From: Eledone cirrhosa
Taxonomy: Eukaryota
Reading direction: 5' to 3'
NCBI GenBank assembly: GCA_964016885.1
Contig: OZ024740.1
Span: 99,014,001 to 99,078,000 of the forward strand
DNA: 64,000 nt
Positions 18,208 to 63,178 of this stretch are shown piece after piece; position 1 is the stretch's first letter, and each line of letters begins with the position of its first letter. Both the position numbers and the translations under genes were made by a program. The notes under the pieces are model-generated. The model saw only the letters and a program-made list of their open reading frames with translations. It was not told the origin of the DNA and did not search any database.

Positions 18208-18272
18208 TATTTCATTATATATATTTCAAGGATACCAAGTTACATTATGGTATGCCTTCATCAGACAAAATA
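18208..18272 (-). ncRNA. type I hammerhead ribozyme H2a
   Basis: tattttgt CTGATGA [aggcatacca..tggtatcctt] GAAA tatata TA atgaaata; second copy at 46794-46859. Confidence 0.75.
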
Positions 18273-19129
18273 CAATATATAACAGTTTTATAAATAGACA
18301 TTGACGTACCCCTTTTAAAAATTGACTGTTGTTTTTGGAGGCCATCGGGATAGTGATTTGTTTACTTTAGTAAGTCATAGTGTTAAGAGTAAGTAAAAAG
18401 ATGGAGAGAGAGAGAGAAACGTGGAGAAAAGAAAGGGAGAGATAGATAAAGAAAAAGAAGGAAGCAAAAAGAAAAGAGAACAGAGGAAAAATAACGGGGA
18501 GATATCAAACCATCAGACAGAGAAAAAATCCAGAGAGAGACATATAGAGATAGAGAGAGGGGGGAGAGAACGAAAACCTTAAGTTATGTCATATTAAGTT
18601 GAGTTAACAATTGGGATGAAAAGCATAAATAAAATTAGAAATATTAATATTCATGAATGGAATATAGATATATAATATGAGATATTACACATTGTTTAAT
18701 TATGATTAGATATTTAGTTTAAAATTGAGATCAATATATTAAAAATTGGAATTTAAACATTATAAAATATATATATATTGCTAGAGAGATTATCTATCGC
18801 ATATTACATACAATAGGCAAAGGTACATAAATATATATATATACACACTCACTCAGAAAATACACATTATATCTACTCCCGCACATAATATATATATACA
18901 AAGCATAAGTGATTTTTTATTTATTGCCATACATTTCCTGTGTTATTAATTAAAAATTAAAAGTTTTTAGTATATATATATAAATATATAGGATTAACTT
19001 TCATGCATTTATGGCTGTTAAGTTCTGCATATCTGCAATCAAAAACTGCATGTGTCAGCCTGTACATTCTCATCCATGATTCTTAGCTATACATGAATAG
19101 ATATGTGTGTGCATCTTCAATATATATAT

Positions 19130-20540
19130 ATATTTATATATAAAATATAAAGATTTACATATGCATAAAGTCACAGATATATATGTGGCAACGGGTCACG
19201 TTGTGGCTCAATGAAGAATTAATAAATTAAATAATCAGAGCAATATATCATAAATCATGTCCTTAGAATTATTAGATAAAATATATACCATTTCCTCTCC
19301 CAATTAGCATAATTAACCATATAACCTCCTACACACACACACACACATATATATATATATATAGACATATATATATATATTTATTTATATAGACATATAT
19401 ATATATATATATATTTATATATAGACATATATATATATTTATATATATATATAAATATATATATATATATATATATATATAGACATATATATGTATATAT
19501 ATATATATATTAATATATATATATATATATATGTCTATATATATATATATATATAGATATATATATAGCATATATATATATATATATATATATATATATA
19601 TATATATATATATATAGCATATATATATATATATATATATATATATATTTATATAGACATATATACATATATATATATATATATATATATATATATATAT
19701 ATATATAGATATATATATATATATATATTTATATATATATATAAAGATTTACATAAACACAAACTAGACAAAGTCATAGATATGCTTTTGGCAACCATTC
19801 ACGATGTGGCTCAATGATGAATTAATAAATTAAATAATCAGAGCAATATACTATAAATTATATCCTTAGAATCATTTGATAAGATATATACTCAATTTTC
19901 TCTCCCAATTAGCATAATCAACCACACAAAATAAACAATTAAACCAGGCTATAAGATTAAAAGGCACCTGTGAAGAAATAATAGATAAATAAACGATAGC
20001 CGTCTATTCGCTATCAACAGGCATAGAATATTTACCCAGCATTTCAATAGCACGTGGAAATCGATTAAATATATCGTCAACCACATACAATTAGGTATAA
20101 AATTAAAATTAGAAGCAAAAATGCATATACACATACCAGGATTACGTTTCTACGCTTCAGGGTTTCGATCGCTTTCGGAAATATCCTATTAAGGATAAAT
20201 TCTCAAGCTTCGAATTCATCAGAAAACAACCTCACTTGGGCAAAGATTTCTCTTAAATGATACCCGCAAGAAACGAATTCAAAATGGCTAAGCACTGTGA
20301 TGTGGCATTGGTCAAGTTAGAAAGAATGTGATTGGTGCCTTACGGCTAGTAGACTGGTTGCGCAGCCTAATATTGCCCAGATTGCATCTAAACCTTATGG
20401 GAGATTATCAAATATAAAGATTTACATATACACAAACTAGACAAATTCATAGATATGCTTTTGATAACCATTCACGATGTGGCTCAATGATGAATTGAGT
20501 ATATATATTATCAAATGATTCTAAAAACATAATTTATAGT
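19130..20540. repeat. three dispersed direct copies of a ~190-bp unit around a (TA)n array
   Basis: ATAAAGATTTACAT...GTGGCTCAATGA.GAATT...TTAGAAT at about 19147, 19741 and 20414; (TA)n array at 19330-19745. Confidence 0.8.
20146..20227 (-). ncRNA. hammerhead ribozyme H3 (long stem II, imperfect stem III)
   Basis: gtttt CTGATGA [..gctt..tatcct-taat-aggata..aagc..] GAAA c..g TA gaaac. Confidence 0.5.
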
Positions 20541-20624
20541 ATATATATATATATATATATATATATATATATATATATATATATATATATATACATATAT
20601 ACATATATATTAATATATATATAT

Positions 20625-21628
20625 ATAGACATAGTAATAATAATAAATTTGAAGTCTAAAATCCAAAGAGGGCTCGATAAGGCTAAACATATATCAAATA
20701 TATAAGAACCGTAGAGCAAATATTTATTAAAATAGCAGATTAAAGTTTAAGCAAAGAATCGCTGCTTTCACCCTTAACGGGATCTTCTGAAACTAACAAA
20801 GTCAATCTGTAAACGCAGAAGTGGATATTTCAAAAAAAGTTGCAGACGGAGGAAGAAAGGAAGACGATACTTTGGTTCGTGGAAACGATCCCTGGCTATG
20901 CAAATAAGTAATGGTTTAAACATAACATATACTTAGCTACCACATCAAGACGTAAAATATCCACGTATAGATCGTACTATCCGTTAGGGTATAATGTGGG
21001 GCTGTAATACTGGAAAATGTTGTGCAATTTATGTTTACAAGCCGAAATTGCCTCAGATTTTTTGTTTAAGATGTGGTCTGTGGCGTAGAGTATTTCCAGG
21101 GCCTCAGAGGGGCAGAGGTCACATGATCTTTTATTTCCGTTATACGATCTAGCCCTAGCTAGGATCTCCCAGTGTAACTTATATTGGGTGTGGTTGTCTT
21201 TTAGACTCCAGATATAAGCTGAAAGTGACGTCCTATTCTTTCTTAGAGTGTAACGAAAAGAATGGGTATGCATGTAAAGTCGCTGCTTGAATCTATTCGC
21301 GGTTAACCTTATGTAGGCACTACGGGACGTGGGTGTTTCAACCTTACATTTGTAGACAATGTTACTAGAGAGGCATTTCCCGGATAGGGGGCAATCAACC
21401 CGATTCCTACAATTACAGTTAGAACTAACTACAGGGTTGCACGTGTTCCTACAACTAGGTAGTTTAGCTAAATTTGAAGCTGTGATATTATGTGCAAGGT
21501 TAGGAGTCGTAGAGTAAGTAAGACATTTTAATAGTATTTCTATTAAAAATGTTACTATATTTATGTGTAGGGGGAAAATGCTTCGTAATAAGGGAAAGAA
21601 AGATCTTAGCTAATGGTGTGGCCACATA
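20625..21628 (-). mobile_element. Penelope-like element 3' fragment (GIY-YIG plus pLTR)
   Basis: CNCRNRVDCPLSGKCL, VYKCKV..AYI, TSLSAYIWSLKD, CDLC..CKH; 3' UTR carries hammerhead H1; both ends abut (TA)n. Confidence 0.85.
20744..20794 (-). ncRNA. hammerhead H1 (CAGAAGA core)
   Basis: agttt CAGAAGA t-ccc-gttaa-ggg-t GAAA gca..tgc TT aaact. Confidence 0.65.
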
Positions 21629-61783: not shown

Positions 61784-62128
61784 CTCTATTTATATATATA
61801 TATATATATATATATATATATAGTATAATATATATATTTATTAAAATAACAGAATAAAGCAAATAATCGCTGCTTTCACCCTTAACGGGATCTTCTGAAA
61901 CTCATTTATTATTATTAATACATAATACTTACATATATATATATTGTATATATATATATATAAATATATATATATATATATATATATATATATATATATA
62001 TATATATATATATATATATATATATATATATATATATATATATATATATAATATATATATATAATATATATATAATATATATATATATACATATATATAT
62101 ATATATATATATATATATATATAATGTA

Positions 62129-62965
62129 CTAGCAGTAGTACCCGGCGTTGCACGGGATAAGGTATTTTGGAACGCGGGCTGCCAGCAGACCTAATCGTGG
62201 AATAACTACAGGCGTGGACAATATGTAAAGAAAATTAACCGAATACTCTGATGGCTGGATAATCTTTAAGATTGTCCTCGATGAACCAGGAAAAATGCTG
62301 GTTTTCACGTAATGCGGGCCCTAGGGGATCAAGAAAACGAATTTTTCTTCTGTGCATAATATGCCTTGAAATTTCGGGTAAATCGGCTAGACGTAACGCC
62401 TCAAAAAAGCCCTAAAAAGCTGAAAAAAATGAAGTTTTTTACCTAATGCGGGCCCTAGGCCATAAAAAAGTTGAATTTTGTTGCTCACGGTATGAAGAAG
62501 AAACTGACTAATACATACTTACTATTTCAAGGAATTCAGTCTGACGTAACGACTAAAAAAACCCTAAAAACCTGAATAAACGCAGTTTTTCAACTAATGC
62601 GGGCCCGAGGGGATCAAAAAGTTGAATTTTATGTGCCTAACACTCCCTGAAACATAAGTAATACACATGTAAAGTTTGAAAAAATACGGTTGGGTACTTC
62701 TCGAGATTTAGGAATTCAAACTCACAGACACACACACACACACACACACATATAGATATCCTCAGGCAAGTGACGTAATGCAGACAGCCAGACATACAGA
62801 CATATATTATAAGGGCGCTACGTTATATGTATGTATCTATATAAAAAGAGAAAGACTAAGAATTATAGAGAGAGATCGCTAAATTGCCTAATGCGGTCCC
62901 TTGGGCATTGAAAATTTGAAATCTTTTTTGCTCAGAACACACACTCCCTGAAACATAAGTACTAC
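62129..62965 (-). mobile_element. non-autonomous Helitron with internal ~135-150-bp repeats; 5' end uncertain
   Basis: Minus strand ends CCCGTGCAACGCCGGG-tactactg-CTAG|T, the same terminus type as at 3238; TAATGCGG(G/T)CC at about 62310, 62444, 62595 and 62889. Confidence 0.7.
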
Positions 62966-63127
62966 ATATATATATATATTATATTTGTATATATATATAT
63001 TTTATATTTGTATATATATATTTATATATAGTAATAATAATAAATTTGAAGACTAAAATCCAAAGAAGGCTCGATAAGAATAAATATATATCAAATAATA
63101 TAAGAACCGGAGAGCAAATATTTATTT

Positions 63128-63178
63128 AGTTTCAGAAGATCCCGTTAAGGGTGAAAGCAGCGATTCTTTGCTTAAACT
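63128..63178 (+). ncRNA. hammerhead H1 (CAGAAGA core); truncated inverse copy at 61857-61902
   Basis: agttt CAGAAGA tcccgttaagggt GAAA gca-gcgattctt-tgc TT aaact. Confidence 0.65.

Follow-up and report, generated by a model that had tools for sequence, protein, structure and literature searches.

Hammerhead motifs in a (TA)n-rich stretch of the Eledone cirrhosa genome are probably near-3'-end remnants of Penelope-like retroelements

The 64,000-nt stretch of the Eledone cirrhosa genome analysed here (assembly GCA_964016885.1, 2,995,841,428 bases; contig OZ024740.1, termed C1, positions 99014001-99078000; hereafter the window, numbered from its first base) carries 30 hammerhead ribozyme-derived motifs, which an earlier note on this DNA had read as a special field of unrelated ribozymes. 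We find that these motifs are likely the near-3'-end parts of short repeat insertions abutting (TA)n, namely pseudo-long terminal repeats (pLTRs) of Penelope-like elements (PLEs) and non-coding derivatives of them. To the explanation as a whole, in which PLE pLTR leftovers lie in (TA)n, were copied from uncut templates and carry a fold that is selected in master elements and decays in inserted copies, we assign a probability of about 85%.

Parsed family by family, all 30 positions that the earlier note had listed held type I hammerhead-derived motifs, in 16 sequence families (F1 to F16), bearing out its picture of numerous, diverse and unannotated minimal hammerheads of the Penelope type. The window has a GC content of 34% with abundant (TA)n, and one alternative is that the motifs are chance matches in AT-rich, low-complexity DNA. 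In the shuffled-control scan that the note had proposed, a strict CUGANGA descriptor gave 7 matches in the window against a mean of 0.03 (maximum 1) in 30 local dinucleotide shuffles, and a relaxed descriptor with an intact core (C3-G8 or U3-A8) gave 13 against a mean of 0.3 (maximum 1) in 10 shuffles, excluding chance. Matches with one core deviation lay near background (10 in the window against 4.9 in shuffles, at the lowest score), and motifs of this kind therefore rest on family evidence; monomer folding z-scores, too, were mostly weak (10 of 12 above -2), as chance matching would have it. Set against these points are 51 intact-core motifs in a genome sample compared with 0, 1 and 0 in its shuffles, families with thousands of copies whose reversed-pattern controls gave 0, and covariation in a joint F1/F12 alignment; the shuffle, sample and covariation results already refute chance matching, to which we give practically no credence. 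Rfam recognized none of the 30 motifs at its gathering score, and none was among the best 150 of 257 matches at E<=10, a listing dominated by microsatellite mimics of microRNAs.

F1 and F12 have helix I in common and covary when aligned, so the claim that all families are unrelated fails for this pair. In their joint alignment (15 sequences), 98.3% of cells were paired and 8 of 21 pairs showed two-sided change, against 35-54% paired in slid controls; the structure was set by hand from the sequences, and kinship inflates the shuffle test. The open helix I and three-helix layout are backed by covariation for F1/F12, and helix I is just 2-3 bp in F16 and F7. The (C or T)TGAN(G or A)A signature proposed earlier fails in six F3 copies (20744, 42231, 42756, 49478, 61857 and 63128), whose core is CAGAAGA (U4A). 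The motif at 52071 is hammerhead-derived, as claimed, and larger than described: it spans about 52071-52181 of the minus strand, its core is A9U and its helix II measures 82 nt.

Sixteen of the 30 copies have a type I core (C3-U4-G5-A6-N7-G8-A9, G12-A13-A14-A15.1 and U16.1-H17, or U3-A8), which F3, F7, F10, F14 and the damaged copies lack. Nine of these cores are consensus (18208, 20146, 22832, 33519, 34205, 46495, 46794, 53829 and 60078) and seven are U3-A8, five with a helix I of 4-5 bp (22307, 33787, 50767, 51029 and 51620) and two, from F16, with a helix I of just 2 bp (60406 and 61631); a consensus or U3-A8 core together with a helix I of at least 4 bp occurs in 14 of 30 motifs. Eight further motifs are intact copies of family-level core variants, comprising four U4A (20744, 42231, 42756 and 63128), two A13C (24447 and 31450), one U4C (34952) and one A9U (52071), and six copies are damaged (23550, 37263, 49478, 54719, 56625 and 61857). 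A short palindromic helix III, the dimer-dependent type, is present in 16 of 30 window motifs and in 35 of 51 sampled motifs, the sampled share being biased upward by a scanner that rewards palindromes.

The arrangement of the motifs relative to (TA)n points to retroelement insertion. Of the 30 window motifs, 26 had (TA)n on the downstream side of the cut site, no more than 150 nt away (background 33%), and 9 had it upstream; among the 51 sampled motifs, 42 had it downstream (background 23%). Element 3' ends are fixed, tails are one-sided, and inverted arms account for the layout of motifs on two strands. Motifs with no adjacent open reading frame (ORF), taken earlier for an independent ribozyme population, are instead likely 5'-truncated or start-to-end retroelement stubs. 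We propose that an element protein nicks (TA)n DNA, which is likely given the (TA)n flanks and published PLE biochemistry. Because 3' ends are fixed and tails one-sided, reverse transcription would start at an internal site of the element RNA, between tens of nt and about 150 nt beyond the hammerhead, and run towards the RNA 5' end. The hammerhead would fall within the first stretch copied, and nearly every insertion, however short, would therefore keep one; an inverted second arm would often add another on the opposite strand. New insertions would nest in the (TA)n runs of earlier ones, so that (TA)n-rich stretches become crowded.

Translated searches recovered PLE ORF remnants upstream of the window motifs of F3, F7, F12, F14 and F15. 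Across all fetched loci, same-strand PLE ORFs stood upstream at the family-typical distance in F3 (20/104), F12 (17/99), F14 (6/19) and F15 (3/16), of Hydra type, and in F7 (7/18) and F16 (5/24), of Neptune type; a link to elements with a reverse transcriptase (RT) and a GIY-YIG endonuclease is present in these six families and absent or weak in the other ten. The ORFs of F3, F12, F14 and F15 carry a C-terminal GIY-YIG domain with a CxCX5C linker and without CCHH, and these families have the (TA)n insertion, inverted arm and tail. The remaining Hydra motifs, RW after IP and DKT, were read in F3 (RWR, DKT) and F12 (RWI, DKT) only, and the F3 ORF matches P0081 (E 4.5e-77), which, over the part compared by eye, is identical to Hydra-1_Ajap. 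By the marks of Craig et al. (PMC8557442), the four families appear to be Hydra-clade PLEs. The 777-aa ORF of F16 has GxKF, DKG, a CX2-5CxxC linker and a CCHH endonuclease, and F7 ORF pieces have a CX2-5CxxC linker and GIY-YIG, suggesting that both are Neptune/Nematis-type PLEs, two clades that we do not separate. Naiad identity was rejected, as the linked ORFs carry a C-terminal endonuclease. F16 is very young (40 of 40 top hits were 100% identical), has open 777-aa ORFs at loci L199 and L201 and is probably a still active element; at L199:1740-2714, a 325-aa reading frame with no Pfam match lies upstream of its RT-endonuclease ORF.

To place the window in its genome, we ran the same scanner on 54 evenly spaced 10-kb stretches (540 kb). 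The 51 intact motifs found there correspond to 6.0 per 64 kb, compared with 13 in the window, and extrapolate to about 2.8x10^5 motifs genome-wide. Allowing a helix II of up to 130 nt, a setting that adds real long-arm families and also false hits, gave 65 sample hits against 3, 4 and 6 in shuffles, 14 in the window, and a raw genome estimate of 3.6x10^5 (bootstrap 2.6-4.8x10^5). Whole-genome pattern searches with reversed-pattern controls returned 238,214 against 45,383 matches for the core plus a 6-nt helix III, 76,996 against 1,650 for the core plus SWWS, and 23,372 against 80 for U3-A8 plus CCGG; exact family patterns returned 19,765 (F3), 11,119 (F7) and 7,458 (F13), with controls of 0 each. 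The excess over controls summed to about 3.3x10^5, with the first three patterns checking no helices and possibly overlapping slightly, and some families uncovered. We estimate about 3x10^5 hammerhead motifs in this 3.0-Gb genome, so that Rfam-based annotation misses about one ribozyme motif per 10 kb. The window is thus not a special field, as had been proposed; it is only modestly crowded, at about twice the average density, and about 6% of random six-stretch sets reach 13 motifs per 64 kb. Motif count correlated with (TA)n fraction over the 54 stretches (rho 0.62), and the first 18 kb of the window hold 0.4% (TA)n and none of the 30 motifs, against 9.2% (TA)n in the remainder. Further consensus-core families with a helix II of 86-120 nt, missed by ordinary descriptors, were seen at L034:2434-2584, L047:3921-4059, L076:2990-3289, L026:2250-2364 and L065:5168-5852.

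The 5' ends of genomic copies record which RNA was copied. Copies were anchored on sequence from the cut site onwards and taken in their order along the chromosome, using for F12 the first 100 of 10,179 matches (first 60 Mb of one chromosome) and for F3 77 copies (first 21 Mb of C1) of the 39,443 exact genome matches to its 3' end. In F12, 31 of 100 ends fell at -126 to -119 from the cut, one at the cut and two at +3/+5; in F3, the 5' edge of the hammerhead (-48 to -37) held 20 of 77 ends, and one end fell at -1 (binomial P against uniform about 1e-23 and 1e-12, respectively). Both boundaries lie at or beside an A in what we take to be an initiator-like context. They likely mark a fixed RNA start, with copies made from uncut RNA; the template would then be mostly uncut RNA beginning at a fixed point upstream of the cut. 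An internal promoter is on record for the pLTR of Penelope (PMC2377424). Element ends defined by the cut site were considered and rejected, as no pile-up appeared there in long-element 5' ends or in position-ordered copies.

Sequence variation among copies suggests where selection acts. Among 83 F12 copies of full length, rare variants were as common in the core (1.3%) as in helix II (1.2%), with 1.7% in the flank, and shared variants spared the core, with 0 of 11 conserved core positions hit and 6 of 6 variants at paired helix I/II positions keeping the pairing; the fold would therefore be kept in masters, by selection on active elements, and decay neutrally after insertion. Three families were amplified with fixed core changes and kept helices, namely F3 with U4A (19,765 exact matches; A in 100 of 100 among the matches listed), F7 with A13C (11,119 matches; GCAA in 97 of 100 among the matches listed) and F14 with A9U (13 of 13 loci shown; 2,452 candidates). 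Changes of these types would strongly lower hammerhead activity, and the fixed cores would speak against a strict need for catalysis. Published work records damage from most changes to the core, activity with U3-A8 and tolerance of U4C in a viroid (PMC3088659); our literature searches found no natural hammerhead with U4A, A13C or A9U, although the supplement of PMC4209133, outside the search, may list them.

These cores bear on a different reading, in which the fold acts mainly as a non-catalytic RNA signal: through palindrome-based dimerisation of templates or by binding protein it would promote template switches and inverted arms, and cutting would be a side effect or have been lost. Besides the three abundant families that keep their helices around fixed U4A, A13C and A9U, it could draw on the 2-bp helix I of F16, the youngest family, on F12 and F3 templates that look uncut and on catalytic mutants that leave PLE insertion unaffected in vitro (PMC11167929). 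We consider it unlikely. A perfect catalytic core, with compensatory changes that include U3-A8, is retained in most families, which points to selection on chemistry; moreover, the fixed variants could be founder mutations that arose recently in a few masters, F12 junctions show no clustering at the palindrome, and helix III of F3 is a hairpin rather than a palindrome. A bolder proposal, which we advance tentatively and think doubtful, treats this hammerhead population (>300,000), the largest for which we found a number, as a natural mutational scan, in which the Penelope fold would be a dimerisation or protein-binding signal for template switching and not a cutter, and cleavage at most a protein-triggered off switch or an F13-type circle-maker. 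A family-specific palindrome code was rejected, TATATA, CCGG and CAATTG being common to several families.

Several observations weigh against the explanation of the motifs as PLE leftovers copied from uncut RNA. No PLE ORF was found within 1.8 kb upstream in F1 (0/35), F4 (0/9), F8 (0/6), F11 (0/8) or F13 (0/61); F6 had 2 of 32, apparently nesting hits, and F2, F5, F9 and F10 had just one or two each, so that a PLE origin of these ten families is suggested by their architecture. Pfam named none of eight PLE proteins tested, and the clade calls come from sequence motifs, not a tree. Each 5'-end sample comes from one chromosome, and paired arms belonging to a single insertion do not count as independent. 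The fixed 5' boundary might reflect an RT stop or a microhomology hotspot, and a small cleaved fraction might explain the 3 of 100 F12 ends at 0 to +5. Rare variants of F3 were less frequent in the core (1.2%) than in the flank (2.7%; 46 copies, with a full-length filter that biases this), a pattern that would fit strictly neutral decay less well. The window features are as follows.

18208..18272, minus strand: F1 hammerhead; consensus core, palindromic helix III TATATA; related to F12.
46794..46859, minus strand: second F1 hammerhead; consensus core.
20145..20228, minus strand: F2 hammerhead; consensus core, 49-nt helix II; genomic relatives pair helix III better.
20744..20794, minus strand: F3 hammerhead; U4A core, CUU site; about 190 nt 3' of a Hydra PLE C-terminal remnant.
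20986..21631, minus strand: putative Hydra-clade PLE ORF remnant of F3; RT thumb, linker and GIY-YIG end, 84% to the L021 ORF.
42231..42281, plus strand: F3 hammerhead; 42231 is the likely RNA start by the genomic 5'-end pile-up.
42757..42805, minus strand: F3 hammerhead on an inverted arm; U4A.
49478..49528, plus strand: damaged F3 copy; U16.1 lost.
61857..61902, minus strand: damaged F3 copy; helix I damaged.
63128..63178, plus strand: F3 start-to-end stub; U4A.
22307..22344, plus strand: F4 hammerhead; U3-A8 core, CCGG palindrome.
22832..22882, plus strand: F5 hammerhead; consensus core, weak helix II, hairpin helix III.
23550..23592, minus strand: F6 copy with a broken palindrome; elsewhere F6 forms ORF-less tandem units of 434 nt.
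34205..34247, plus strand: F6 hammerhead; consensus core, CTAG palindrome.
24447..24482, minus strand: F7 motif; U3-A8 with fixed A13C (GCAA), 3-bp helix I; 3' end of a putative Neptune/Nematis-type PLE.
26068..27450, minus strand: broken, putative Neptune/Nematis-type PLE ORF of F7; RT, CX2-5CxxC linker, GIY-YIG.
29831-30284, plus strand: inverted arm of the F7 PLE ORF.
31450..31486, plus strand: F7 motif on the inverted arm; A13C.
33519..33576, minus strand: F8 hammerhead; consensus core, TGATCA palindrome.
33787..33888, plus strand: F9 hammerhead; U3-A8 core, 75-nt helix II.
34949..35003, plus strand: F10 hammerhead; U4C core, with C in 5 of 5 copies among fetched loci.
37263..37317, minus strand: F11 copy; A15.1 lost, intact relative in locus L047.
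42991..46610, plus strand: decayed, near full-length, putative Hydra-clade PLE; ORF pieces at 43170-45570; ends at (TA)n.
46495..46565, plus strand: F12 hammerhead; consensus core, TGCGCA palindrome; predicted cut after 46557, likely RNA start at 46434-46435.
50527..51782: F13 ORF-less retrozyme-type insertion; minus arm 50527-51019, plus arm 51020-51782; unit 51112-51702 (591 nt).
50767-50854 (minus), 51029-51116 (plus) and 51620-51707 (plus): F13 hammerheads; U3-A8 core, CTACGTAG palindrome.
52071..52181, minus strand: F14 motif; fixed A9U core, 82-nt helix II, CAATTG palindrome.
52907..53593, minus strand: putative Hydra-clade PLE C-terminal remnant of F14.
53829..53888, minus strand: F15 hammerhead; consensus core.
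54601..56802: F15 putative Hydra PLE remnant with inverted arm; ORF pieces at 55329-56330 (plus).
54719-54778 (minus) and 56625-56684 (plus): F15 motifs in that remnant; both end in a non-cleavable GUG triplet.
60078..60136, plus strand: F15 hammerhead; consensus core.
60240..61837: F16 inverted stub pair; motifs 60406-60453 (minus) and 61631-61678 (plus), U3-A8 core, 2-bp helix I.

Other observations in the window touch these features or lie apart from them. A likely decayed 31st motif lies at 36840-36906 (plus strand), with a G8C core and F1-like helices I and III. The repeat at 58043-58197 (minus strand), absent from the earlier list and recurring in loci L042, L044 and L077, scores as U3-A8 with a 120-nt helix II and is possibly a chance fit in a high-copy repeat. 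A 140-nt tandem duplication occupies the F3 3' untranslated region at 41879-42152 and 49241-49410. Contigs of four sequencing runs, whose kind is not recorded, were aligned to F3 and F12. Depth in run X4 rises more steeply at both likely RNA starts, a rise that we give no weight, as such contigs do not reveal RNA ends or levels. The same run differs by T>C or A>G, at 6-20% of depth, at 46556, 42171, 42191, 42208 and 42215; five of six X4-specific differences are of these two types and are absent or nearly so in run X1. They would fit adenosine-to-inosine editing of double-stranded RNA from inverted arms, and expressed private alleles fit too. The C-terminal remnant of a further PLE-like ORF (CxxC linker, GIY-YIG), with no hammerhead attached, lies at 32571-33248 (minus strand). 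At 6719-11276, two direct repeats of 585 nt (89%), with a weak Flp_C match below cut-off (E 5.8e-5), flank an RT-bearing ORF region (RVT_1 at 9283-10197), and a tRNA-like sequence at 39-109 (minus strand) is probably the head of a short interspersed nuclear element.

The earlier suggestion that any transcript through the region could be cut into defined pieces on both strands is not supported. A palindromic helix III, present in 16 of the 30 motifs, needs a partner on the same RNA, and there is a sole close same-strand matching pair, 51029/51620, 591 nt apart, whose double-hammerhead helix III is predicted to form with pair probabilities of 0.76-0.996. F5 and F15 have a hairpin helix III but weak helices, and 34205 and 46495, named earlier among the best candidates, are predicted not to cleave as monomers. 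Most copies probably cannot cut passing transcripts on their own. PLE hammerheads are described as having no monomer and low dimer activity (PMC4209133) and as needing an element protein for activity (PMC11167929). A host-selected ribozyme field that chops transcripts on both strands could appeal to the 14 motifs with an active-type core and a helix I of at least 4 bp, to the 51029/51620 pair and to the TATATA palindrome common to 18208, 37263 and 46794 on one strand, though 9-29 kb apart. We judge it very improbable, since hammerhead density is a genome-wide property, only about twofold higher in the window, the F12 core decays as fast as the rest of the copy, 6 of 30 motifs are broken, published minimal PLE hammerheads are inactive as monomers (PMC4209133), and a Pfam scan of 152 window reading frames (42 plus 110, the latter being those submitted of 128 short candidates) gave no convincing host exon. 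A host function for the window motifs is not supported. Within the PLE explanation, the hammerhead would likely process tandem element RNA, slowly and with the help of a dimer partner or a protein. This processing may supply circles in F13 and other ORF-less families, and the hammerhead would be dispensable for insertion.

Judged by sequence, F13 is an ORF-less 591-nt tandem family of retrozyme type, with a longest stop-free frame of 86 aa, a predicted unit fold of -177 kcal/mol against -138 +/- 6, and 7,458 exact matches genome-wide; two to five tandem hammerheads occur in 27 of 67 arms. The 5' ends of the 67 arms fall all along the unit, densest near positions 388-401, with no excess after the cut (5 of 67 within 20 nt after it, against about 3 expected); a cluster just after the cut among the first loci was gone with more loci, 8 duplicate rows of 75 having been removed. 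This spread would fit a circular or multimeric template. F6 is probably also of retrozyme type (434-nt tandem in locus L040), other CTAG families form 434-500-nt arrays, and at C1:5738326-5750934 (G000) at least 28 hammerhead-bearing units about 466 nt apart, with a CTAG palindrome, make up a satellite-like retrozyme array. One could thus imagine that all families spread through hammerhead-cut, religated circular RNAs, as a rolling-circle retrozyme system: F13 is ORF-less and strongly folded, has tandem hammerheads and 5' ends spread along the whole unit, and the CTAG arrays would suit it as well. We find this improbable for the families at large, as the sharp fixed 5' end upstream of the cut in F3 and F12 is not what a circular template should give, F13 arrays could come from read-through multimers or template switching, and F13 ends after the cut barely exceed expectation (5 of 67 against about 3). 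For F13 alone, propagation through circular RNA is somewhat favoured.

The motif kind itself is known; new here are the number of motifs that the genome holds, the variant cores that have become fixed and the trace that apparently uncut templates have left in DNA. The largest printed hammerhead count that we found is 126,247 motifs in the 28-Gb axolotl genome (PMC7229834), and earlier counts include about 2,000 plus 1,300 in Schistosoma, 4,000 in coelacanth and 9,000 in Xenopus (PMC4209133). Literature searches on hammerheads in octopus, cephalopods or molluscs returned no census, a term search of the available text of a 2026 octopus repeat annotation (PMC13282606) gave no mention of ribozymes, and neither a genome-wide count nor template-end evidence of this sort was found in print. 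The role of PLE hammerheads is described as an open question (PMC8557442, PMC11167929). It is testable in this genome: families whose cores are intact can be matched with families whose non-canonical cores are fixed, F16 supplies a probably active element whose ORF is open and F13 a retrozyme that lacks one, and copy numbers are high enough for template ends to be read from DNA.

The closest known system is the minimal PLE-pLTR hammerhead of Cervera and De la Pena (2014, PMC4209133), with which the motifs share the type I layout, short palindromic helix III, long variable helix II, U3-A8 variants, many families per genome, mostly as single copies tied to truncated elements, and opposite-strand pairs 100-700 bp apart; they differ from the text of that report in number (about 3x10^5), in a helix II reaching 57-120 nt and in family-fixed U4A, A13C and A9U cores. 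Hydra-clade PLEs (PMC8557442) correspond in the C-terminal GIY-YIG, RW, DKT and CxCX5C motifs, lack of CCHH, (TA)n target, 3'-proximal hammerhead, inverted 5'-truncated arm and one-sided tail. Hydra-1_Obim of Octopus bimaculoides is already listed there with a hammerhead (File S2); the clade is described as few families with canonical hammerheads, whereas we find at least four putative Hydra families, two with non-canonical cores. The F16 and F7 ORFs resemble Neptune/Nematis-type PLEs in GxKF, DKG, CX2-5CxxC, a CCHH-type GIY-YIG and (TA)n flanks, F16 having two 3' ends about 37 nt apart, and are unlike them in the 325-aa upstream frame (L199) and 2-bp helix I of F16 and in the A13C of F7.

Poseidon PAc of Anolis (Frangieh et al. 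2024, PMC11167929) is alike in its internal RT start, two 3' ends that define the tail, AT-rich targets and uncut RNA as the main template. It was characterised in vitro and by RNA sequencing, for one element whose hammerhead overlaps the start codon, whereas the present evidence is genomic 5'-end mapping in two putative Hydra families whose hammerhead lies upstream of the ORF. Metazoan non-LTR retrozymes (Cervera and De la Pena 2020, PMC7229834; Li et al. 2026, 10.64898/2026.07.22.740005) share with F13, and probably F6, ORF-less tandem units with one type I hammerhead each and occurrence beside PLEs, and with F13 strong self-pairing. F13, likened here to circular-RNA retrozymes from DNA alone, differs in a unit longer than the quoted 150-450 bp, a U3-A8 core, a 57-nt helix II and PLE-type inverted arms.

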